Of a DNA stretch of 17,335 bases, positions 2,087 to 17,322 are shown in pieces (the stretch's first letter is position 1; the number at the start of each line of letters is the position of its first letter). Source of the stretch: Candidatus Jordarchaeales archaeon (GTDB lineage Archaea; Asgardarchaeota; Jordiarchaeia; Jordiarchaeales; Freyrarchaeaceae); NCBI GenBank assembly GCA_038858525.1, contig JAWCFL010000004.1, positions 84,451 to 101,785 on the forward strand, read 5' to 3'. The notes below the pieces were generated by a model. That model was not told where the DNA came from and ran no database searches. It saw only the letters and a list, made by a program, of their open reading frames with translations. A program made the position numbers and the translations under genes.

Positions 2087-4012
2087 CTATTTGAAAACTT
2101 CATCTATGTACGCTTCGAGCTGCTCCTCCCTGTATCCTCTCCTGTAAATTGCCTTTGAGGGGCAGGTTGCGGCGCACTTACCACATCCTCTGCACAAGAG
2201 CTCATTTACCGTGGCGATGTCGCCAACGCTTATGGCACTGTAAGGGCAGACAAGCTCGCATAGCCCGCAGCCGTTGCATCTATCCTTCTCGACAACTGCC
2301 GTGGCAAGCTCGAACTCCACCTCCTCAGCCAAGAGAAGACCGACGGCGGAAGCCGCGGCAGCCTTCGCTTGGGACACGCACACATCTATAGCTTTTGGTC
2401 CCTGCGCGTCACCACAAATGTATATGCCGCGCATCTTGGTGTCCGTTGGGGCTAGCCGCGAGTGGAACTCCTTAATGAAGCCGTCTGGGCTTCGCTCAAG
2501 CTTAAGGATCTCTGAGACCTTTTTTAAGTCATCTGAAGGAACGACGCCCGTCGAGAGAACAACTAGATCGGCCTTCAGCTCGAGAACTCTGCCTGAAAGC
2601 GTATCCTCGACAACTACTATAAGCTCGCCGCTACCAGTATCCTCAACGACCTCCCCGACTCGCCCCCTCAGGAACACGACACCATGCTCCCTCGCTTGAA
2701 CGTAGAACTCCTCGTATCCTTTCCCATATGCTCTCACGTCAGTGTAACAGACGAAAACTTCGACGTCCTGCAAGTGCTGCTTTAACAGCATTGCGTTTTT
2801 GAGGGACACCATACAGCACACGTTAGAGCAATACTCGTTCTCGTTCCTGTTTCTGAAGCCGACGCACTGTATCATGACTACTCTTCTGGGTTTTCTTCCA
2901 TCTGAGGGTTTTACGACTTCTCCTCCCGTCGGGCCGTTAGGGGCTAATAGCCTTTCAAGATGGAACTGTGTTATCACGTTGGCGTACTTTCCATAGCCGT
3001 ACTCGCCGAGCTTTGGCTCGTATGATGCGCCGCCGCAGGCCACTATTATTGCTCCAACCTCCAAGTCGACTACTTGCTCCTTCTGATTGAAATCTATAGC
3101 ATTCTTGCCGCACCTTTTTTCGCATAGGCCGCACTTGATGCACTTTTCCATGTTTATGAGGTATGTTTGAGGGACGGCTTGTGGAAACGGCTGATATATC
3201 GCCTTTTTTGACCCCAACCCTAAGTCGAAGCTACTTGGTGTGAAAACGGGGCAGACCTCGGCGCACGCTCCGCATCCGCTGCAAAGCTCCTCTTTAATAT
3301 ACCTCGGCTTCCTCCTAACCCTAACCTTAAAGTCTCCTATGCTACCCTCGACAGATTCAACCTCGCTGTAAGTTAGGATCTCTATCTCCTCTTTTCTGGC
3401 GGCTTCAAGCATTAGTGGCCCAAGAATTCAGATCGCGCAGTCATTTGTGGGGAATGTTCTGTCGAGCATCGCCATCCTTCCACCAATAGTGGGGCTCTTC
3501 TCCACCAAGTACACTTTGAACCCGTTCTTAGCCACCTCGAGTGCAGCCTGTATCCCACTTATTCCTCCCCCTATCACGAGGACGCTGGGATTCACAGGGA
3601 GAAGTATGCGTGGCACCTCCTCGAGAAGTCTTGCTTTGGCTACCGCTCCCCTTATAATGTCCTTAGCCATCTCTAAGGCATTTTCGGCGTCCATCATATG
3701 GACGAAGGAGTTATGCTCCCTAATGTTTACGAACTCTAACATGCTGGGGCTCAACCCCGCCTCATATAACACTTTTTTAAAGACGTCTTCGTGCGTCTTA
3801 GGGGTGCATGCCGCAACTACCACCCTGTCCAGCTCTTGCTCCCTCACTCTCGCCTTTATCAGCTCCGCTCCGGCATGGGTGCAGAGAGAAATGTATGTCT
3901 CAGCCCAGACAACATCCCTCAGCGTAGACGCGTAGTCTCTGAGTGCCTCGACATCGATGACGCCAGCTATGTTCTTGCCACAGTGACATATGAAAACACC
4001 TATGCGGGGAAT
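2087..4012 (-). CDS. hdrA: Heterodisulfide reductase subunit A (FAD, multiple 4Fe-4S), selenoprotein; about 640 aa, start uncertain
   Basis: One frame runs from PRIGVFICHCG (about 4009) through VVVAACTPKTHE, the FAD motif VLVIGGGISG and FPTNDCAI(UGA)ILGPLM to CSGCGACAEVCP, CSNVCCM and the C-terminal ferredoxin CNGCGLCELVCP/CRGCGKCAATCP. The track ORFs 3428-3847 and 2087-3412 are in this same frame. No ATG/GTG/TTG lies between the in-frame TAG at 4025-4027 and the conserved N-terminus. Confidence 0.93.
3428..3430 (-). other. In-frame UGA, putative selenocysteine in HdrA
   Basis: FPTNDCAI-UGA-ILGPLM corresponds to the conserved FPTxDCxxCIxxPxM, the known Sec position of Methanococcales and Lokiarchaeia HdrA. 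Confidence 0.92.
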
Positions 4013-5194: not shown

Positions 5195-7594
5195 ATGGTT
5201 TGGCCGCGTCCTCTTAAGCAAGGAATGCTGAAGGTTGTCTGCCACAAGGACTACGAGCGCGCTCTCATCCGTTGCATTCACGAGACCGGAGAAGTCGAGC
5301 TAATAGACATAGAGGAAAAAGGCGGTGCCTCATCAGTCAAGCTGAGTGACGAGGAGAAAGAGGCGATCCAGCTGCTCGGCGACGTCCAAAAATACGTAGA
5401 CTACTTGGGCATTGAAAAATATGTGCCATACATTGCCCGCCTGCCAGACAGCAAAAAAATGGCGGTGGACGACGAGAAGCTCTCAAGCATAATCTCTATA
5501 ACACGGAAGACGCTTGAGGCTGTTGCACCGAAGATCGACGCCCTCAGAGAGGAGCTCGTCAAAGTGAACCAGGAGCTCGAGCAACAACGGGCACTTCTCA
5601 AGATAGCGGAAACCGTGAAGCCCCTCGGAATAGAGCTAACTCACATAGGGGAGGGGCGCTATGTTTACGCCGTCGCTGGCACGATTTCCGAAGACAAGGT
5701 TAGCATGATAAAATGGAGAGTAGCGGAGGTAACGAATGGCGACTATATATTCCACCACGCCAGCATAGGTGAGGGAAGAGCCGTCGTCCTGATAGCGACC
5801 TTCAAAGAGCACAAAGAAATCGTTCAGCGTCTCCTGACAGCATTTGGCTTCGAAGAGTTCAAAATTCCATCAGAAGTCGAGGGGTCAACCGATAAAATAA
5901 TTGAGAGAACACAGAAGCGGGTTAAGTCTCTAGAAGACCGTCTCGAGAAACTTGAGGACGAAAAGTGGAAGATAATAAAGCAGCACGGCTATAACCTGCT
6001 TGCCTGCAAAGAACTTCTTTCCATAGAAAGAGAAAGAATGGAGGCTAAAAACTACCTCAGGCGGACCGAAACCACTGTTGAACTTTGGGGCTGGGTTCCC
6101 TTAAAGTCTGCGAAGAGGCTGGTTCAAGCAATAGACAAAGCAACCGAAAGGACGGCGGTAGTAGAAGTAATAGATCCAGCGATACCGGAGGAGGAACGCC
6201 CAACAAAACTTGAAAATCCAAGGATAGCGGGACCATACGAGGCCCTAGTGAAAAGCTTCGGAATACCGAACTACAAGGAAATAGACCCGACAAAGTTCAT
6301 GGTAATAACCTTCCCAATAATCTTCGGGATGATGTTCGGCGACGTGGCCCACGGGGCAATACTTGCCCTAGTGGGTCTTGCACTTGTAGCCTGGCGCACT
6401 AGAAAGCCGGTCGTCGGCGAAATCATAGGTTACGGCCTCAAGGCCGGTAGCCTCCTCTTCTGGTGTGGCCTCACATCCGTCTTATTTGGCTTCCTCTACG
6501 GCTCGTTCTTCGGGTCACACCATGTCATAGATCCACTATGGTTTAATCCGTTCACCTCTGAAGGAAACTTCAAGCTCTTAAGGCTCGCCATAGTTGTCGC
6601 AGTAATAGAGATAAACTTCGGCTTCCTCCTAAGAATAGTAAACCTCTACCACGAAGGAAAACTGAAGGAAGCATTCTTCATGCCCACATGCCTAATGTGG
6701 ACACACATAGGCGCCATGACCATTCTCTTCAGTGACCAGTATAGTGTAGACTTCATGAAGTGGTTCTCATCAACACCTCCATTACTCCTAGACCCATCTA
6801 CAACCTTACTTTACGAACGCCTAACGGAGTTGCTCCATGCTCACCCCGAAACCCCAGTATCCGCCTTAACCAACATGATCGAAACAGCTAATATAACGCG
6901 CGAACTCATAACAAGGCTTTCAACACCATTCTACATGACCCTGCGACCCCTAAAGGTCTTCGAGCCCTTAGCACCCAACCTCTTCGACAAAAGCATCTGG
7001 CACACTTTAGAGTTCCTCGAAGCCCTCCACCTTCTCCCCGAACAACTAACGGAGACGCTCCACTTAGCCAAGCAACTCTTCATCTGGAACTCAACTTCAC
7101 ACTTCGAAATACACCTTCCCCCCATAACAATAATGCTCTTCTTCCTCGTAATACTACCAGTAATACTGGCACTTGTCGGAACGATAGCGATATCCCACGA
7201 CAAGTCAGAAGGCTTTTCAGAAATATTCGACCAGCTATTGGCTCTTCTATCTCACACTGTGAGCTTCGCACGAATATTCGCCCTGGCAGCGGTGCACTAC
7301 ATCTTCTCACACCTGGGACTACAAATACCCCCATACACACCGACACTAGCAGTATCATTTACGGTAACAGAAATCTTCACTATAAAAATGCCGCAAATAG
7401 TACAGGAATCCCTAATAGGAGCAGTACTAATATCGCTGTTCATACTGTCCTTCGAGGGCCTCCTATCATTCCTGCACACACTAAGGCTTCACTGGGTTGA
7501 GTGGTTCATGAAGTTTTATCATGGCGACGGACGAGAGTTCAAGCCGTTCGTTGCAGCTCGCCAAGTGACCGTGCTGAAGAAACCCCCCTTCTAA
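5195..7594 (+). CDS. atpI: V/A-type ATP synthase/ATPase subunit I (a subunit), 799 aa
   Basis: Coiled-coil N-terminal half; PTKLEN, EIDPT, FGMMFGDVAHG, SHTVSFARIFAL (essential Arg) and LHTLRLHWVEWFMKFYHGDGREFKPF motifs. Confidence 0.96.
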   Translation: MVWPRPLKQGMLKVVCHKDYERALIRCIHETGEVELIDIEEKGGASSVKLSDEEKEAIQLLGDVQKYVDYLGIEKYVPYIARLPDSKKMAVDDEKLSSIISITRKTLEAVAPKIDALREELVKVNQELEQQRALLKIAETVKPLGIELTHIGEGRYVYAVAGTISEDKVSMIKWRVAEVTNGDYIFHHASIGEGRAVVLIATFKEHKEIVQRLLTAFGFEEFKIPSEVEGSTDKIIERTQKRVKSLEDRLEKLEDEKWKIIKQHGYNLLACKELLSIERERMEAKNYLRRTETTVELWGWVPLKSAKRLVQAIDKATERTAVVEVIDPAIPEEERPTKLENPRIAGPYEALVKSFGIPNYKEIDPTKFMVITFPIIFGMMFGDVAHGAILALVGLALVAWRTRKPVVGEIIGYGLKAGSLLFWCGLTSVLFGFLYGSFFGSHHVIDPLWFNPFTSEGNFKLLRLAIVVAVIEINFGFLLRIVNLYHEGKLKEAFFMPTCLMWTHIGAMTILFSDQYSVDFMKWFSSTPPLLLDPSTTLLYERLTELLHAHPETPVSALTNMIETANITRELITRLSTPFYMTLRPLKVFEPLAPNLFDKSIWHTLEFLEALHLLPEQLTETLHLAKQLFIWNSTSHFEIHLPPITIMLFFLVILPVILALVGTIAISHDKSEGFSEIFDQLLALLSHTVSFARIFALAAVHYIFSHLGLQIPPYTPTLAVSFTVTEIFTIKMPQIVQESLIGAVLISLFILSFEGLLSFLHTLRLHWVEWFMKFYHGDGREFKPFVAARQVTVLKKPPF

Positions 7595-8430: not shown

Positions 8431-8732
8431 CCTTAATCTGAAAAGTTAATATCATGGTTCCTTATTGAAATAAGGGGTGTTCGATCAAATTTTTGTTTTT
8501 TCTATGCGACGTGTTGCTTGAAGGGGGAGCGTTTCATGCATCCAACTCTCTTTCGAAAGGTGTTGCTTTTAACTATTCTTTTCCTTTTTAGTGGCTTTTT
8601 ATCTCATTATGCCATATTGACATAACCTCTATTGCTGTTTGCTTGTGTAATACTTAAATAATATTGAAACCAATACAATATGTTGAGTGTTTTGCTAGGA
8701 AGGGTGTTTGCTTAGCTTAAGAGGTGACATTC

Positions 8733-9530
8733 ATGTCCGTTTCCATACCTAAATATATGCTTATGGTTAGAGTGGAGCCCGGTGATAAGTCTCCGATCCC
8801 CTTCAGTCAGGATGCTATCAATAGTGATTCACTTGTTGTTCTCTTAGACGAGGTGGATGATCGCCTCTACTTGTGGATGGGTAAAAACAGAAGTTTGGTT
8901 GACAAGAGAGCCGCTATGAGGGTTGCGCAGTCTATTATGAAGGGTGGCTTCTCTTATGGGAAGCTACAAGTGGGGCGAAACTTGAAGGAGCTGGTTGAAA
9001 TAGATGAGTCTAGACTTTCTGAGCCTGATGTTAAAGGAAGCTTTGACGCTCTCAACGCCGTTTTTAAGAGGAACTACACGGCCAAAGATAAGATGCTCGT
9101 CGAAGTGGCCGTTGAGGCACCTTCTTCTGCTGTCGAGGCGCCAGCTCCACCAGTTAAGGAAGTAGAGGAGGCTGTTGGAGCCCCGCCGGCTCAGCCTGCT
9201 AGGGAAGCTCCCTCCGCCGCAGTAAAGCCTCGCCCTGAAGCTGTAATGTCTGTTGAAGCGAAGGCTACTGAGGTAGAACCTGAACTCGTGGGGCGAGCTA
9301 AGTTGGGGTTGCTGTTCACTCTTCTTGCAGAAGAGTTCACTGAACTCCTTGTCAGCTGCAAAGTTGAGGAAGGGGTGCCCGTCTTTGAGTTCGAGTCCCC
9401 GGAGGGGCTCATAGCCAAAGTCTCCATTGACGGAAAGGATCTCGTCATCTCTTACGGTTCAAAGTTCGCTGAAAAACGGGACAAAGTTATTTCTAAGCTA
9501 AAGGAGATAATAGGGAAAATTCTGGGTTAA
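8733..9530 (+). CDS. Gelsolin-domain protein: N-terminal gelsolin/villin-like repeat, Pro/Ala/Glu linker and unknown C-terminal domain, 265 aa
   Basis: IPFSQDAINSDSLVVLLDEVDDRLYLWMGKNRSLVDKRAAMRVAQSI matches the gelsolin repeat consensus (LNSxDxFILD..IYxWxG..S...K..A...A..I). ATG at 8733 follows GAGGTGA. Confidence 0.72.
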   Translation: MSVSIPKYMLMVRVEPGDKSPIPFSQDAINSDSLVVLLDEVDDRLYLWMGKNRSLVDKRAAMRVAQSIMKGGFSYGKLQVGRNLKELVEIDESRLSEPDVKGSFDALNAVFKRNYTAKDKMLVEVAVEAPSSAVEAPAPPVKEVEEAVGAPPAQPAREAPSAAVKPRPEAVMSVEAKATEVEPELVGRAKLGLLFTLLAEEFTELLVSCKVEEGVPVFEFESPEGLIAKVSIDGKDLVISYGSKFAEKRDKVISKLKEIIGKILG

Positions 9531-11709: not shown

Positions 11710-11766
11710 GAAGCTTGTATCTTAAAAGTTCCTTGAAGTTTTGCTTTCACTGTGGAGGGGCTTGTG

Positions 11767-12060
11767 GTGAGCGGGAGGTTCAAAATAGTCATTTTTAAGT
11801 CTGAGCGTACTCCCAAGTACTCCCAAGTAGTCAAGACAGTGCGTTCCTCTCTCGAAAAACTCGGTTTGGACCTAGAGGTTGAGGAAGTTGACGTGTCTAA
11901 GAACCCTGAAATGGCTGTTAGGAGCGGAGTAATCTCAACGCCAACAATAGATATAGTTGGTTTGAACTGGCGATTCATAGGGCTACCTACAGAGGACGAA
12001 TTAATAGCTGTTTTAGAGTCATTGAAAGAGGAGGGAGAAAAGCGTGGCAAAGAGGAGTAG
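11767..12060 (+). CDS. Cysteine-less thioredoxin-fold, KaiB-like protein, about 97 aa (start 11767 or 11764)
   Basis: Pattern TP..., VDVSKNPEMA, STPTI, RFIG resembles both KaiB (IDVLKNPQLA, ATPTL, RIIG) and archaeal thioredoxin-like proteins. The protein has no Cys. GGAGGGG precedes the GTG. Confidence 0.7.
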   Translation: MSGRFKIVIFKSERTPKYSQVVKTVRSSLEKLGLDLEVEEVDVSKNPEMAVRSGVISTPTIDIVGLNWRFIGLPTEDELIAVLESLKEEGEKRGKEE

Positions 12061-12838
12061 GTCATCTTCCGGCTTCATGGCGGAACTCAAGGAAAGGATA
12101 ATCTCTGAGGCACGCGTAATAGAGTCACCCGGCGAGAGGACGCCGACGGGAATTCGAGGGTTCGACGAGCTAGTTAGAGGAGGCCTTTTCAAAGGTGCAA
12201 CTTATCTGCTGTCGGGGGTATCGGGGGCTGGCAAGTCGATCTTTTGCCTCGAGTTCCTTTATCATGGCGCAGCAGAGTTCGATGAGCCAGGACTGTACGT
12301 TTCGCTCGAAGAGCACTTGGATAGCATACTTAGGAACGCTAGGAACTTCAAGTGGAACTTGAAAAGCCTCATAGACCGGCAGATGCTAGTGCTGCTGGAT
12401 CTCAGCGTAGTGGCTGTAGGCGAAAAGGCTCTGTCTCTCAACACTGACGTGTTCGCATTGGACGGCCTCTACGCAACAATGGAAAGTGTGATTAAAGAGG
12501 GCGGGATCAAGAGGGTGGTCCTCGACCCGATCTCCGTTCTCTTCTTGCAGTATGGGAACGTAGGCGTAGTTAGGCGTGAACTCAACGTCATTTCGGGCAT
12601 GCTGAAAAGGCACGGGTGCACTTCGATCTTTGTCACAGAAACCGAGTACGGGAAGCCAAGCATAACACGGTTCGGCGTGGAGGAATTCATGGCAGACGGC
12701 GTCTTCCTACTTTACTGGGAACCTGAGGGCGATAAAAGAAGCAGGTACATTGAAATATACAAAATGAGGGGTTCCCCACATTACGAGGGAAAGAAGCGCT
12801 TCTCAATAACCGACAGCGGCATAGTAATCCTCTACTAG
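12044..12838 (+). CDS. Single-domain KaiC-like (RecA-superfamily) ATPase; start 12044 or 12077
   Basis: TGIRGFDELVRGG, Walker A GVSGAGKS, catalytic SLEE, Walker B RVVLDPIS, VEEFMADGV and arginine finger KMRGS. Confidence 0.92.
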   Translation: MAKRSRSSSGFMAELKERIISEARVIESPGERTPTGIRGFDELVRGGLFKGATYLLSGVSGAGKSIFCLEFLYHGAAEFDEPGLYVSLEEHLDSILRNARNFKWNLKSLIDRQMLVLLDLSVVAVGEKALSLNTDVFALDGLYATMESVIKEGGIKRVVLDPISVLFLQYGNVGVVRRELNVISGMLKRHGCTSIFVTETEYGKPSITRFGVEEFMADGVFLLYWEPEGDKRSRYIEIYKMRGSPHYEGKKRFSITDSGIVILY

Positions 12839-12873
12839 CATCATGCAGCAGACTTGCACTTGACTCCGCGAAG

Positions 12874-12881
12874 TTTTATAT
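12874..12881 (+). promoter_or_regulatory. Possible internal TATA box upstream of the fusion gene
   Basis: TTTTATAT in the 138-nt gap between the kaiC-like stop and the ATG at 12977. Confidence 0.3.
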
Positions 12882-12976
12882 GCTCAAAACGTATAACGAA
12901 CGTCTTTAAGGCTACGTTCATGGCTTACAGTGCCTGGTGTGCCGCCCTCAACTCTAAGATGGTCCTGGTGACTCAC

Positions 12977-14116
12977 ATGATAAGGTTGAGGCTTCCGCTC
13001 TTCGACCGTCAGCTGGGTGGGATTCCTGAGTCCTCGAAAAACCTTTTCATGGTTTTCCCCGGCATTGATCCCTCAATACTGGGATTACATGTGGTTAGGG
13101 CAGGCTTAGAAGAAGGATACAAAGTCGTTTACTTTGTGAATAATAAGCCTCCCATAAGTGTGAGGAGGCAGGCTAAGAAGTCTCATCTAAGCTTCGAAGC
13201 ATATGAGCAAAAAGGGCAGTTCATCATGGTAGACGCATACTCCATGTTTAGTGGGGCGGAAAGCCATGAAAAAATCGTAGTTAACCCTTACGATGTTAAC
13301 GCAACGAAGAAGACTTTAGCTGACCTATCTTCAAAGAACACGCTCTTAGTGCTCGACTCGCTGAATAGCCTCTTGGAGTCGTGGGGCGGCAAAGCGGAAC
13401 CATTAACTGACTTTTTGAAGGCTGCTGATGCATCGACCCTAATTGCCCTATTTTCCTCTTGGCTCTACATGGATGAATCCGTTAAGGGAATGGAGAGCCT
13501 CTTCGACGGGGTATTTGAAGTTAAACCCGACCCTCTCCTCATAGTAGAAAACCGGTTTAGAGTAAAAAGGGTTTCCTGGGCTACTGGGGCAGGAGAGCTG
13601 TCCTTCCTCGTGAAGGCAGTTTCACCAAGCGAGCTTAGGGTATACCTTCCAAAAGTGGTTGTCCTCGGGCCGTACAATGCGGGTAAAACCACTCTTGTTC
13701 ATGCTTTAGCTGAAGACGCAGTTAGCGTTGAACGGATGGGCACTACGGTCGCACTCGACCACGGCTCATTGGATTATAAGGGGTTCTACATGGAGCTCTT
13801 CGGCACCCCGGGGCAACCTCAGTTCGAACCAATCCTTGACATGATGATGGATGGAGCTGTCGGATTCATTCTCGTCGTTGATAGCGCCGACGCATCGACC
13901 TTCAATAGAGCTAAAGAGCTTTTCGATAAGTGCGAGGGAAAGGCCCCGATAGTGGTGGCTGCAAACAAGCAGGACTTAAAGTTAGCCATTTCTCCCAGCG
14001 ATCTCAGAACCCGCCTTAATATTCCTTCATCCGTCCCCGTGGTTGGTTGTAGCGCCAAGAACAGGGTTAACGTATTCCTCATACTCGACATTCTCCTAAA
14101 CCTGATCTCCATGTAG
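12977..14116 (+). CDS. Fusion of an inactivated KaiC/RecA-like domain and an MglA-type small GTPase, 379 aa
   Basis: ATG at 12977 follows GGTGA. The N-domain has LPLFDRQLGG and LVLDSLNSL but FPGIDPS in place of Walker A. The C-domain (from about 13651) has GPYNAGKTT, TTVALD, FGTPGQ, NKQD and CSAK. Confidence 0.85.
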   Translation: MIRLRLPLFDRQLGGIPESSKNLFMVFPGIDPSILGLHVVRAGLEEGYKVVYFVNNKPPISVRRQAKKSHLSFEAYEQKGQFIMVDAYSMFSGAESHEKIVVNPYDVNATKKTLADLSSKNTLLVLDSLNSLLESWGGKAEPLTDFLKAADASTLIALFSSWLYMDESVKGMESLFDGVFEVKPDPLLIVENRFRVKRVSWATGAGELSFLVKAVSPSELRVYLPKVVVLGPYNAGKTTLVHALAEDAVSVERMGTTVALDHGSLDYKGFYMELFGTPGQPQFEPILDMMMDGAVGFILVVDSADASTFNRAKELFDKCEGKAPIVVAANKQDLKLAISPSDLRTRLNIPSSVPVVGCSAKNRVNVFLILDILLNLISM

Positions 14117-14129
14117 GGAGGTGTGCTGT

Positions 14130-14492
14130 TTGGAGTTTAGGGGTAAAATTAAAAAACTCTTAATGAAACTTCAGGCATTAGAGGGGGTTGAGGGCTGCCT
14201 CGTAGCAATGAGGAACGGAAGCGTTCTAGAGGCGCTCATGCCCCACGACTTAGATATAGGTAGGCTTGCCGCTATGGCTGCGTCAATGCTTGGAGCCGCG
14301 GAAGTTGCCGCTGAAACAGTCAGGAGAGGGGTAGCCCGCCACTTAACGCTTGAAACTGAAGGCGTAACGTTAATAATTACTGGCGCTGGGTCCAAAGCCT
14401 TCCTGTTAATACTCGCCGCGAAGACCACCACCCCCCACCTGCTTAAGGACCTTGAGGAAGCATGTAAAGCGATCACAGAGTTTTTGCCATAA
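14130..14492 (+). CDS. Roadblock/LC7 (MglB-like) protein, 120 aa
   Basis: EGVEGCLVAMRNG, LAAMAASMLGAA and LTLETEG match the roadblock pattern; TTG at 14130 follows GGAGGTG; directly downstream of the MglA-like domain. Confidence 0.88.
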   Translation: MEFRGKIKKLLMKLQALEGVEGCLVAMRNGSVLEALMPHDLDIGRLAAMAASMLGAAEVAAETVRRGVARHLTLETEGVTLIITGAGSKAFLLILAAKTTTPHLLKDLEEACKAITEFLP

Positions 14493-14517
14493 AAACCAGC
14501 TTGAAGGGGAGAGCTTC

Positions 14518-15267
14518 ATGGCGAAGACAGACCTATTAAAGACTGGAATAGAACTGCTCGACCGCCTCCTTGGAGGAGGCATCAATCCGGGCTCCCTATG
14601 CATAGTGGTCGGTGAACCACTAGGTGGAAAGGAACTAATTGCCTTGGAGTTTTTCTGCGAAGGACTAAGACTTGGAGAAGGAGGCATATACGTCACAATG
14701 GTGAATTTCGCCGAGGAAGTGGAATCTGCAATCGCCAGCCGAGGATTAGACCTTTCAGCATACCGCGGCGCCAATCCGAAGTACCGGATAATAGATCTCT
14801 ACCGTCCGACAGTAGATTTCTCCGTTGAGGACAGCGACACTGTGACCTATGTCCCAGCGCCAACAGACCTTGCGGCTCTAAGCTCGAAGATTGTTGATGC
14901 AGCCATGAAGCTCTCACATCTCAGCCGCGTACGCATAATCATAGACTCCCTCTCATCCATCATATCGTTTGCTTCACCCAAGTCCGCTTTAAGGTTCATG
15001 TCCTTCATGAAGGCAAAAGTTCAGCTGTCAAGCAACGTTATCCTAGCAACTCTCGAGCAGAAACTGGCTAACGACGTCGAGACCGAATCAATCCTCCACC
15101 TAGCGAACACACTCATCTTTCTAGAAAAAAATAGGCTTGAAATACGCCGAAGAGGGAAAACACCAGTAGAAGTAACCGTCAAGTTCTCAAATGAAAAAAT
15201 AATAGAAGCCAACCCTCCTAAGAAAACGCAGAAAAACCAGAACTCCAAAAAACCATCGGAACACTAA
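14518..15267 (+). CDS. Degenerate KaiC/RAD55-like RecA-superfamily protein, 249 aa
   Basis: TGIELLDRLLGGG; Walker A altered to GEPLGGKE; catalytic EE replaced (TMVN); IIIDSLSS; Lys/Gln-rich C-terminal tail. Confidence 0.85.
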   Translation: MAKTDLLKTGIELLDRLLGGGINPGSLCIVVGEPLGGKELIALEFFCEGLRLGEGGIYVTMVNFAEEVESAIASRGLDLSAYRGANPKYRIIDLYRPTVDFSVEDSDTVTYVPAPTDLAALSSKIVDAAMKLSHLSRVRIIIDSLSSIISFASPKSALRFMSFMKAKVQLSSNVILATLEQKLANDVETESILHLANTLIFLEKNRLEIRRRGKTPVEVTVKFSNEKIIEANPPKKTQKNQNSKKPSEH

Positions 15268-15496
15268 TACTTCAGACGATTTAAACGCACAAGAACACTA
15301 AAACACCGAAAAAGCTTCTTATTTAAAGGTAAAAACTTAATTTAGAAAGCTCGTCGCAGCATTTGGATACCACTTAACGCAGCGCCTAAAGATAGATGTG
15401 AGCAGCCTGCAGGACGCAGAAAGTTTAACTGGCAATATACATTGAACTAACGCGGTAAGATTAACTAGATGAAAAACTCATCTGTGAAAAACTAAA

Positions 15497-15522
15497 AACC
15501 TCTCTTTTTGTAAAGAGAGGTT
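15497..15522. repeat. Perfect 11-bp inverted repeat
   Basis: AACCTCTCTTT-TTGT-AAAGAGAGGTT. Confidence 0.85.
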
Positions 15523-15642
15523 AAAGTCCATTATTTGCTAATCGAAACACTATAAATTTTAATTATTACTTGCAAATTAAAGAAAAATTTTTATGGCATT
15601 TTCCTCTAACTAATAGTTATTAGTAGTCGTGGAGGGACGATT

Positions 15643-16155
15643 ATGGGGCTCAAAGGGAGAATAGCCTTCCACTTTATGGCTGACAAGATCAACCTTGAAG
15701 CATACATATCCCTTCTAGTGTCGGCTCTAGATTACATTCTCGAAGTGGAGAAAGGTGACGTAAACAAGGCATCCCAAGTCATTTGGAACATGGGCCGGAA
15801 AATAGGCTCTAGAATGCTTGCAAAGTACGCTGAAAGAGTAGGTAAGCATGCTATTGAGTTTTACGAGTTCTCAAAAACATACAACCTTGCGTACTACTTT
15901 TACTTAGGAAAAAGCTACGACAAAATATACGTTGTACCCGAAGAGAAAAAGATAGTCTTTGAGGATTACGATTGCCCCGTTTGTAGGGGAGTGCTGCTAC
16001 CCGACGAGTTAAAGGGAGTGCGGCTCTGCAACATAATTGACGGAATATACACTGAAGTATGCACAGTCAGAGGGTTCGACGCTGAATCGTGGGAAACCAA
16101 ATGTAAAGCATCTGGAGACGAATGTTGCAGACATGAATTACGCCTAAAGGTATGA
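15643..16155 (+). CDS. V4R-domain protein (Bet3/TRAPP-related fold), 170 aa
   Basis: DCPVC, LCNIIDGIY and ETKCKASGDECCRHEL V4R signature; helix NMGRKIGSRML; GGAGG upstream of the ATG. Confidence 0.85.
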   Translation: MGLKGRIAFHFMADKINLEAYISLLVSALDYILEVEKGDVNKASQVIWNMGRKIGSRMLAKYAERVGKHAIEFYEFSKTYNLAYYFYLGKSYDKIYVVPEEKKIVFEDYDCPVCRGVLLPDELKGVRLCNIIDGIYTEVCTVRGFDAESWETKCKASGDECCRHELRLKV

Positions 16156-16342
16156 AAGACACGAATCCCCTTTAATTATTTTATTTTTTCATGTTTCTAA
16201 TTGTTGCAGATTATCTTTTGTTAAACGCGAATTAATGTATTCTCTCAGGTTTACTTTTACTGACGTATATAATTACTTGATGTCATATAGTATACCATAG
16301 CTCGGCTCTCTCAATGCAAAGAAGGGGGGCTTTGTTTCTCCT

Positions 16343-16579
16343 TTAGTTTGCCAGTATCCTGCTTATTTTTTCTTCTTCAAGCTTCTTAAGGTATGTTTCT
16401 AGGTGCTTCGCGCTTTTAAAAATCTGTATAGCGTTCCTATCCTCTATTCTGACGATTGCCATGCGGTTCTGCAGGGTGACGTATATTCCGCCAAGCCTTT
16501 CATCATGCTTCATGAAGACCTCTTCGCCACCCCCCTTAACTCTCCAGAACCCCCTTCTCCTCAAAACGTTTCTGAACAT
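16343..16579 (-). CDS. Small hypothetical protein, 78 aa, possibly HicA-like fold without the catalytic His
   Basis: ATG at 16579 follows GGAGGGGTG; purine-rich coding strand; LRRRGFWRVKGGGEEVFMKH resembles the HicA N-terminal pattern. Confidence 0.6.
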   Translation of the reverse strand: MFRNVLRRRGFWRVKGGGEEVFMKHDERLGGIYVTLQNRMAIVRIEDRNAIQIFKSAKHLETYLKKLEEEKISRILAN

Positions 16580-16791
16580 CAAAGTACACCCCTCCAACTA
16601 AGGGATATTGACGTGAAAGGTTAAGAAGATAAATAAAACAGAGAAAATATTCCTGAGTTTACTTCCATTTTTAAATAGTCATTAGGGGAGGAAGTGTTTT
16701 AGGTGGTGATCGGAAGAGTGAATGTTTAAATTTTAAAGTTCCGTCATGTTTCTTGCTGATGGTTCGTCTCCGGGCGAAGGAGGAGAGCGCA

Positions 16792-17322
16792 TTGAACACA
16801 TCAAAGTACAACTTTAAGGTTCTAGTTGTTGGTGACGGGGGGGTGGGGAAGACCAGCCTAACGCTCAGATTTACCACGGGCTCCTTCAAGGAAAACTACA
16901 TGCCGACTTTGGGAGTTAACTTTTACTCTAAAACAGTAGATGTGGAAGGCGTCTTAGTCAAGCTTACGGTATGGGATACAGGGGGGCAGGAACGCTTCAA
17001 ACCATTACTTCCAAACTACTTTAAGGGGGGTCAAGGCTCCCTCGTCGTCTTCGATGTAACAGACTCTGAATCCTTCAAAAGCGTTGAAGGATGGGTGAAA
17101 CAGGTGAAGCATTACTGTGGTGACGTCCCCATTGTCATTGTCGGAAACAAGATTGACCTCTCATCAGAAAGAAAGATAAGCCGCGAGGAGGCTGCGAGGC
17201 TCGCGGACAGGCTTAGCGCACCATACTTCGAGTCATCAGCGAAGGAGAACATAATGGTGAAGGATGTCTTCACATTTCTTGCCTCCCTCATACTAAGGAA
17301 CTCACTTAAAAGAAACGACTAA
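16792..17322 (+). CDS. Rab-like small GTPase, about 176 aa
   Basis: GDGGVGKTS, PTLGVNF, WDTGGQERF, GNKIDL and ESSAK motifs; TTG at 16792 follows AGGAGG; no C-terminal Cys. Confidence 0.95.
   Translation: MNTSKYNFKVLVVGDGGVGKTSLTLRFTTGSFKENYMPTLGVNFYSKTVDVEGVLVKLTVWDTGGQERFKPLLPNYFKGGQGSLVVFDVTDSESFKSVEGWVKQVKHYCGDVPIVIVGNKIDLSSERKISREEAARLADRLSAPYFESSAKENIMVKDVFTFLASLILRNSLKRND

Follow-up and report, generated by a model that had tools for sequence, protein, structure and literature searches.

A Conserved Five-Gene Operon of Jordarchaeales Links KaiC-Family Proteins With a Tethered MglA-Type GTPase

Here, we describe a five-gene operon in the genome of a Candidatus Jordarchaeales archaeon (Asgardarchaeota) that combines a KaiC-type ATPase, a KaiB-like protein, and a small GTPase of apparent MglA type. 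The operon occupies positions 11752–15267 of a 17,335-nucleotide stretch of DNA (assembly GCA_038858525.1, contig JAWCFL010000004.1; C4:84451-101785 in our numbering), which we call the window. We consider it rather probable that the operon is a functional unit, namely, a KaiC-based, two-nucleotide switch built around the tethered GTPase. The original prediction, made from the sequence alone, named seven genes within 5.6 kb: the five of the operon, plus a V4R gene and a Rab-like gene. All seven are present on the predicted strands, as judged by the open reading frame (ORF) listing and by Pfam and PDB sequence searches; NCBIfam searches also contributed to our gene calls. The observation is thus confirmed. 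Its interpretation is partly supported: the proposed wiring of a KaiB-like/KaiC pair of CI type to an MglA-type GTPase and a Roadblock protein corresponds to one operon conserved across Jordarchaeales, and the larger cluster does not behave as one unit. The operon genes are as follows.

11752–12060, plus strand: KaiB-like protein of 102 amino acids, predicted thioredoxin fold, free of cysteine
12044–12838, plus strand: single-domain KaiC of CI type, 264 amino acids, PF06745 at 218.8 bits
12977–14116, plus strand: KaiC-like::MglA-type GTPase fusion, with the start codon ATG 12977 set by its orthologs
14121–14492, plus strand: Roadblock/LC7 (MglB-like) protein, PF03259 at 44.1 bits
14518–15267, plus strand: second KaiC-like protein, PF06745 at 69.4 bits, plus DUF7504

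The Five-Gene Order Is Conserved in Jordarchaeales

The window genome (G000) is 2.09 Mb in size and 92.7% complete, and the DNA sequencing runs that contain the stretch are hot-spring metagenomes. We compared the locus with those of seven relatives and with 71 loci, using one genome per species. Among the relatives, G001–G003 belong to the same genus as the window genome and G004 belongs to a sister genus, all within family f1; G006, G007, and G009 represent a second, sister family of Jordarchaeales. All four f1 relatives (the G003 contig ends inside the fifth gene) share the order KaiB-like, KaiC, fusion, Roadblock, second KaiC-like, and so do the three second-family genomes that we compared, at 48–63% protein identity.

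What surrounds the operon distinguishes the two families. Within f1, synteny extends upstream to genes for PanB, V-ATPase subunit I, a gelsolin-like protein, TrmI, and a radical SAM protein. In the second family, both flanks differ. Specifically, immediately after the operon come genes for a MoxR-type AAA ATPase and for a VWA protein (L015:11695-13519), and no V4R or Rab gene comes after it in the second-family genomes examined. MoxR–VWA pairs have been described as pilus-linked regulators (PMC4858521). Because the five-gene order survives where all flanking synteny has been lost, the arrangement goes beyond chance. To judge by this comparison, the conserved unit is the operon at 11752–15267, smaller than the 5.6-kb cluster. 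Conservation of gene neighborhood, offered with the original prediction as a check, therefore holds for the five genes and fails, across the order, for the V4R and Rab-like positions. The claim of a single 5.6-kb unit with two GTPase outputs falls accordingly: the V4R gene is absent from this place in G001 and G002, and the sister family has neither a V4R nor a Rab gene there.

Evidence for expression comes from two metatranscriptome runs of one sediment study, which yielded contigs 97–99% identical to the stretch and thus derived from a near-identical strain. These contigs cover parts of the KaiB-like, KaiC, fusion, Roadblock, and fifth genes, as well as parts of the V4R gene and a small gene downstream. 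One contig of 1175 nucleotides (13258–14432) bridges the fusion stop codon into the Roadblock gene, and the V4R contigs terminate at the two ends of that gene. No contig covers the Rab-like gene or positions 12828–13203, which is no evidence of silence. Together, the contigs weakly support expression of the five genes.

KaiC and Its KaiB-Like Partner

The KaiC encoded by the operon carries an intact Walker A motif (GVSGAGKS), a catalytic glutamate pair (EE89–90), and a Walker B motif (VVLD). It scores 182 bits against the CI domain of cyanobacterial KaiC, 54 bits against CII, and 127 bits against the archaeal protein PH0186. Every feature of the KaiC family that we looked for is present, which places the protein in that family, with CI as its type. 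It is probably the active ATPase of the operon. Residues 126–147, the equivalent of the B-loop, are almost invariant across eight orthologs.

The stop codon of the KaiB-like gene overlaps the KaiC start by 17 nucleotides. The sequence RTPKYSQV occupies the place of the CxxC site in the encoded protein, which matches Pfam Thioredoxin_3 above the cut-off (27.6 bits) and, in a PDB search, both the thioredoxin MJ0307 (E 2e-7) and KaiB (5jwq_B, E 1e-3). Five AlphaFold2 models score alike, with mean predicted local distance difference test (pLDDT) values of 71–75. The best of the five (pLDDT 74.8), which is the one whose topology was read, has the order beta-alpha-beta-alpha-beta-beta-alpha. The KaiC-binding form of KaiB likewise has thioredoxin topology.

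A word-based homolog search with the KaiB-like protein returned close relatives only. A profile built from 11 orthologs and run against a library of 1.8 billion representative proteins reached farther. At E < 1e-10, it found its own cluster alone; weaker matches include cysteine-free proteins, CxxC thioredoxins, and, at E of about 2e-4, true KaiB proteins (Pfam KaiB at 1e-21). The closest relative from outside the lineage, P0015 (E 1.8e-9), has KaiB as its sole Pfam match. Its gene lies directly upstream of a gene for a two-domain KaiC, with overlapping stop and start codons. In its CI half, this two-domain protein shares 43% identity with the window KaiC and aligns gap-free across that segment. 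A 160-amino-acid protein encoded upstream of P0015 shows no similarity to the window V4R protein. In the window genome, the only match to the KaiB model is the window protein itself, at 19.3 bits, below the cut-off. Among the loci searched outside Jordarchaeales, the profile detected no such gene beside a fusion gene.

Modeling connects the two proteins. The complex of KaiC with the KaiB-like protein scored 0.63 in three of three runs, and the best control scored 0.01. The mark applied to this score is attained by 58 of 80 solved complexes and by 2 of 110 mismatched pairs. The runs share at least 76% of their contacts, the pLDDT of the partner is at least 80, and the modeled interface on KaiC consists of residues 120, 128–148, and 170. 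These residues align with the cyanobacterial segment EVVGGFDLSALIERI, which we take to be the B-loop and the helix following it, the place where KaiB binds. The model supports, but cannot by itself demonstrate, binding of the KaiB-like protein to the B-loop region of KaiC. Because KaiB–KaiC complexes have already been solved, the passing score may partly mirror likeness to known complexes.

A Small GTPase Tethered to an Inactivated KaiC-Like Domain

The third gene encodes a fusion of an inactivated KaiC-like domain (about residues 1–218) to a small GTPase (about residues 222–379). Pfam assigns KaiC to the N-terminal domain at 41.9 bits and Arf/Ras families to the GTPase at 50–56 bits. The P-loop lysine is absent from the N-terminal domain in all of the approximately 60 family members. 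AlphaFold2 predicts a two-domain protein (pLDDT 89.8, predicted template modeling score 0.85), in which Foldseek relates the N-terminal domain to PH0284, Sso2452, and FlaH and the C-terminal domain to Arl3.

The GTPase motifs are complete: G1 GPYNAGKT, G2 GTT, G3 GTPGQ, G4 NKQD, and G5 SAK, with the sequence reading ELFGTPGQ and MGTTVALD. In a 24-sequence alignment that spans phyla (A3), motifs G1 to G4 are conserved. Specifically, the two threonines and the G, T, G, and Q of G3 are invariant, and the proline is replaced by isoleucine (GTIGQ) in four rows from Bathyarchaeia/Hecatellales. GTPGQ in G3, together with Thr-Thr in G2, where threonine replaces the intrinsic arginine, marks MglA groups 2–5 (PMC4316618). 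Judged by these motifs, the fused GTPase is of MglA type, groups 2–5, and GTPGQ bears out its earlier description as a prokaryote-type GTPase. By sequence, the closest solved structures are Sec4, Arl, and Arf.

Between the KaiC and fusion genes lies a gap of 138 nucleotides (12839–12976), 120 nucleotides long in G002 and about 15–20 nucleotides long in G004 and in the second Jordarchaeales family. The frame of the fusion is open already from TTG 12854. It could hold a promoter internal to the operon or serve as a leader, or else the fusion could have a longer N-terminus.

The Roadblock protein has PDB matches to 9jue_D (E 3.5e-10), to the Asgard structure 7yh1, and to the conservon protein CvnB5, and it is presumed to regulate the fused GTPase. 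The second KaiC-like protein has a degenerate Walker A motif, GEPLGGKE, with glutamate at the Ser/Thr position, and lacks the catalytic glutamate pair.

The Core Module Is Widespread in Archaea

Full-length fusions occur at about 55 further loci beyond Jordarchaeales, distributed among Bathyarchaeia, ANME-2/Methanosarcinales, Methanobacterium, Methanocellales, Thermoplasmata, Archaeoglobaceae, Hecatellales, and Hadarchaeota. Neighbors were surveyed with local profiles, built from the Jordarchaeales orthologs and run over the ORFs of all collected loci. Most of the fusions are flanked by genes for a Roadblock protein and a KaiC-like partner, and we regard this core module of three genes as old and widespread in archaea. 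It comes in two arrangements.

Euryarchaeota (ANME-2/Methanosarcinales, Methanobacterium, Methanocellales, Thermoplasmata): Roadblock, fusion, KaiC-like; Walker A of the partner intact (GPPKTGKS) in nearly all
Bathyarchaeia, Hecatellales, Jordarchaeales: active KaiC, fusion, Roadblock, KaiC-like; Ser/Thr of the partner replaced where the P-loop is readable

The degenerate P-loop of the partner reads GKE in Jordarchaeales and GK followed by R or K in Bathyarchaeia. Every locus with a detected KaiC-like neighbor and a readable P-loop keeps at least one intact Walker A motif, either in the partner or in the added KaiC. From this pattern, we infer that the module needs one working KaiC-type ATPase.

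A Proposed Two-Nucleotide Switch

The mechanism that we propose runs from the ATPase to the GTPase. The CI-type KaiC would cycle between ATP and ADP states, and the KaiB-like protein would read or lock one of these states via the B-loop region. By analogy with KaiC-family domains, which join one another, the fusion and the fifth protein would join the active KaiC through their dead KaiC-like domains. The state of the ATPase would thereby reach the tethered GTPase, at which a Roadblock dimer would set GTP hydrolysis or exchange. Such a system would act as a switch that is driven by two nucleotides and needs no kinase, and not as a circadian clock. With respect to its history, the second KaiC-like protein would have lost the Walker A Ser/Thr in Jordarchaeales and Bathyarchaeia, where a separate CI-type KaiC supplies the ATPase, and the thioredoxin-fold KaiB-like protein would be an addition made by Jordarchaeales alone.

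Several points weigh against this reading. First, the KaiB label depends on context, remote homology, and one structural model. The protein misses the KaiB Pfam model (PF07689; 19.9 bits, cut-off 27), and Foldseek, run on its predicted structure, returns generic thioredoxins only and cannot separate KaiB from thioredoxin. Second, the long gap between the KaiC and fusion genes in this genus may hold an internal promoter. Third, one RNA-library contig joins the fusion and Roadblock genes, but a single transcript cannot be proven from such contigs, and the RNA library may contain DNA. Finally, the window shows no gene for a pilus, an archaellum, or the cytoskeleton that is linked to the operon; a type IV pilus link has been reported in PMC4858521.

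If the operon is the functional unit, it constitutes a complete candidate set, in which an ATPase and its KaiB-like reader are joined by a tethered GTPase with a Roadblock regulator and by a scaffold paralog. All five proteins could be expressed and reconstituted. Furthermore, the complementary Walker A pattern predicts a need for exactly one working KaiC-type ATPase.

The V4R and Rab-Like Genes Downstream

Beyond the operon, the cluster contains the following features.

15497–15522: perfect palindromic hairpin of 11 base pairs, accompanied by T-runs and located in the AT-rich spacer that follows the operon, identified by consensus match only
15643–16155, plus strand: TRAPPC3-like V4R protein of the zinc-cysteine type, with its own GGAGG ribosome-binding site
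16343–16579, minus strand: small gene encoding 78 amino acids, divergent from (head-to-head with) the Rab-like gene
16753–17322, plus strand: Rab-like small GTPase, probable start ATG 16759, Pfam Ras at 192.8 bits

The hairpin possibly marks the end of the operon transcript. A scan for sigma-70 promoters and terminators, which is ill-suited to archaea, showed no enrichment over shuffled sequences. AT-rich spacers of 375 and 597 nucleotides precede the V4R and Rab-like genes, respectively, and both genes appear to have their own start signals.

Over its full length, the V4R protein matches solved structures of TRAPPC3 from Thorarchaeota (7yh3, E 5e-7; 7yh2, E 2e-6). The 7yh3 match covers residues 21–168 with the zinc-binding cysteines aligned, and five cysteines are invariant in our V4R alignment (A5). 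Against Pfam TRAPP, the protein scores 18.8 bits (E 1.5e-3), below the cut-off of 27. Predicted fold and zinc-binding cysteine cluster together identify it as a V4R/TRAPPC3-type protein. Pfam scans of the window identified no longin gene; in the eukaryotic TRAPP complex, an exchange factor for Rab1, core subunits with longin domains (Bet5/Trs23) accompany those of Bet3 type.

The Rab-like protein has as its best solved relatives Rab35, Rab1, Sec4, and Ypt1 (E 1e-45 to 1e-41). Its motifs are G1 GDGGVGKT, G3 WDTGGQ, G4 NKID, and G5 SAK, and within the Ras superfamily its sequence is closest to Rab. It ends in ...LILRNSLKRND and carries no C-terminal prenylation cysteine. A second Rab-like gene, a paralog about 45% identical with G3 WDIGGQ, lies about 800 nucleotides beyond the end of the window (G000:C4:102573-103052, minus strand) and is conserved in G002 and G004 (L013:5297-5869, L014:4748-5323).

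The small minus-strand gene is 75–85% identical in G001, G002, and G004, and this conservation indicates that it is real. Searches of Pfam, NCBIfam, and PADLOC gave no match to it, and a protein atlas yielded only sub-threshold clusters of viral hypothetical proteins.

The original prediction joined all of these genes into one system, with KaiB and KaiC as the input and the MglA-type and Rab-like GTPases as outputs. In the version of this model considered here, V4R would act on the Rab-like protein, much like TRAPP on Rab1. We judge the one-system alternative unlikely, and the evidence divides gene by gene. Only in G000 and G004 does the V4R gene accompany the core. In the same-genus genomes G001 and G002, the short spacer leaves no room for it, and the nearest V4R copies there lie elsewhere, as tandem pairs. 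In ten other Asgard genomes, neither KaiC nor Roadblock nor Rab genes lie within 1.5 kb of the V4R homologs. At the same time, a classical V4R gene lies near the module on the same strand at 20 of the collected loci, which represent six other archaeal lineages (ANME-2, Thermoplasmata, Methanobacterium, Archaeoglobaceae, Bathyarchaeia, and Hecatellales). This number is a lower bound, as many contigs are short, and the 14 ANME-2 loci within it are close kin that amount to about one count. The module-linked V4R of L046, for example, matches PF02830 at 36.7 bits. These module-linked proteins appear to belong to a different subfamily from the TRAPPC3-like window protein: a jackhmmer search from the latter never reached them, nor did the reverse search reach it, and hhalign relates the two weakly (probability 30%, E 5e-4). 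We think it plausible that the window V4R is a ligand- or small-molecule-binding accessory of the module with its own promoter. Whether it works with the operon at all, we rate as evenly balanced.

At L046 (ANME-2, Candidatus Methanogaster), two co-directional genes without Pfam matches, encoding 152 and 174 amino acids (6598–7547), sit between the V4R gene and the Roadblock–fusion–KaiC triad.

Thermoplasmata provide the most favorable case for the one-system alternative. Two loci pack genes for Roadblock, a Ras-type GTPase, V4R, the fusion, and two KaiC-like proteins, with gaps of 3–40 nucleotides. These tight operons (L067:6426-10663 and L070; Methanomassiliicoccales/Thermoplasmata) are the fullest version of the module that we encountered, and G3 of their stand-alone Ras-type GTPase reads WDIAGE.

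For the Rab-like gene, position is the main argument. It follows the core in G000, G001, G002, and G004, and chance adjacency would be uncommon, given only 6 strong Rab-like genes in the 2.09-Mb genome. Such a neighborhood is also unusual for an Asgard archaeon, given the pattern of Lokiarchaeon MK-D1 (Tran et al. 2024). The position is kept only in family f1, however, and carries little functional weight because unrelated upstream genes are syntenic there too. Moreover, MoxR and VWA genes occupy this place in the second family, the AT-rich promoter regions of V4R and Rab are separate, and the divergent small gene intervenes between them. That the Rab-like gene works with the operon therefore appears rather doubtful.

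More specifically, the locus might keep a working link between a KaiC nucleotide switch with MglA/Roadblock and a TRAPPC3-like protein with its Rab-like GTPase. We hold this to be quite unlikely. If it were true, V4R/TRAPPC3-type proteins and Ras/Rab-type GTPases would be recurrent accessories of the archaeal KaiC–GTPase module, here and in Thermoplasmata, and the module would offer a prokaryotic setting from which TRAPP–Rab and Roadblock–GTPase regulation could have arisen.

Clock, Switch, or Chance

In place of the switch that we favor, the operon could encode a true KaiBC-type timer, either an hourglass or an oscillator, that gates the GTPase in time. The timing of the cyanobacterial clock stems from slow CI ATPase activity and KaiB binding. 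Consistent with a timer, the window KaiC is nearer to cyanobacterial CI than to other archaeal KaiC-like proteins, and the KaiB-like partner is modeled on the B-loop region. Against a timer, the window KaiC has no CII domain and hence no canonical phosphorylation sites (the position reads VEEFMADGV, as in CI), and the genome, 92.7% complete, yielded no KaiA. Furthermore, the slow switching of the ground-state KaiB fold gives the delay in the clock, and the window protein is predicted in the thioredoxin fold only, with no sign of the ground-state fold. The KaiB-like gene is also limited to one order, and the module elsewhere does without it. As far as its sequence reveals, the locus lacks what defines a circadian KaiABC system. 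That no KaiA was found, together with the lack of a CII domain and of a predicted fold switch, makes a switch likelier than a clock, and we deem the timer improbable.

Finally, a chance neighborhood of independent members of expanded families (the window genome has about 10 KaiC-domain genes and 12 Ras-family matches) is very improbable overall and is contradicted for the five-gene core by start and stop codons that overlap or nearly touch, by the order kept at 48–63% identity with flanks replaced, and by recurrence of the triad in several archaeal phyla; it is possible only for the Rab-like gene.

Relation to Known Systems

The operon resembles the MglA/MglB switch of Myxococcus xanthus and Thermus thermophilus in that a small Ras-superfamily GTPase is encoded beside a Roadblock/LC7 protein. 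The likeness extends to MglA groups 2–5, which include the actinobacterial conservon proteins CvnB/CvnD: these share GTPGQ and have threonine in place of the group 1 arginine finger (PMC4316618). In that survey, Ras-superfamily GTPases are single-domain proteins of 160–180 amino acids, and archaeal MglA group 4 is without conserved neighbors (Wuichet and Sogaard-Andersen 2014). The window GTPase differs: it retains a coupled Roadblock gene, yet in all members of the family it is fused behind a 220-residue KaiC-like domain, and a further KaiC-like gene goes with it, adjacent at most of the loci.

The operon also resembles archaeal KaiC-like hubs, in that both bring together KaiC-family proteins, some active and some inactivated, and small proteins for input and output. 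Makarova, Galperin, and Koonin reportedly described such “signal transduction hub” neighborhoods in 2017. A thioredoxin-family KaiB-like gene adjoins KaiC in the window, and such a partner of archaeal KaiC has been noted before (arCOG01174; Makarova, Koonin, and Albers, PMC4858521). In the literature that we searched, whose coverage does not extend to the 2017 hub paper, KaiC and MglA or other small GTPases are not joined in this sense, and no published description of the five-gene operon was found.

The third comparison is with the cyanobacterial KaiB–KaiC(CI) complex (PDB 5jwq, 5n8y). The window KaiC is about 45% identical to CI, and its small, cysteine-free partner of predicted thioredoxin fold is encoded just upstream and is modeled in contact with the B-loop. 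The differences are that the window KaiC is a single-domain protein without the CII phosphorylation sites, that KaiA was not found, and that the partner falls below the KaiB cut-off, is equally near MJ0307-type thioredoxins, and has no predicted fold switch.

Fourth, the window V4R protein resembles Asgard TRAPPC3 (PDB 7yh3) in its full-length match and conserved zinc-binding cysteines, and the Rab-like protein resembles other archaeal Rab-like proteins in its lack of prenylation cysteines. Structures of Asgard Rab, Roadblock, and TRAPPC3 proteins are available (Tran et al. 2024, PMC10933270; PDB 7yh3, 7yh1). According to the same study, small GTPase genes of Lokiarchaeon MK-D1 generally lie outside operons with Roadblock or TRAPPC3 genes. 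In contrast, the window V4R and Rab-like genes adjoin a GTPase–Roadblock operon.

The operon thus unites an MglA/MglB-type switch with components of KaiC-like hubs, capped by a lineage-specific pair of KaiB-like protein and CI-type KaiC. Little work has been done on archaeal small GTPases or on the expanded KaiC-like family, both of which are abundant, and pairing Asgard GTPases with their regulators from genome layout is difficult (PMC10933270). In addition, the recurrence of V4R beside the module hints at a small-molecule input that can be tested.

Other Observations in the Window

A defense-system reading of the locus was dropped, as PADLOC returned only a LeoA match confined to the P-loop. 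Upstream of the operon, a gene at 8724–9530 (plus strand) encodes a gelsolin-repeat protein, a eukaryote-like cytoskeletal regulator, that matches Pfam Gelsolin barely above the cut-off (E 2e-4) and is syntenic in the genus. Farther upstream, an HdrA-like gene (2087–3847, minus strand) consists of two same-frame ORFs joined by a TGA at 3428–3430. This in-frame TGA (context ...NDCAI-TGA-ILGPL...) is probably a selenocysteine codon.

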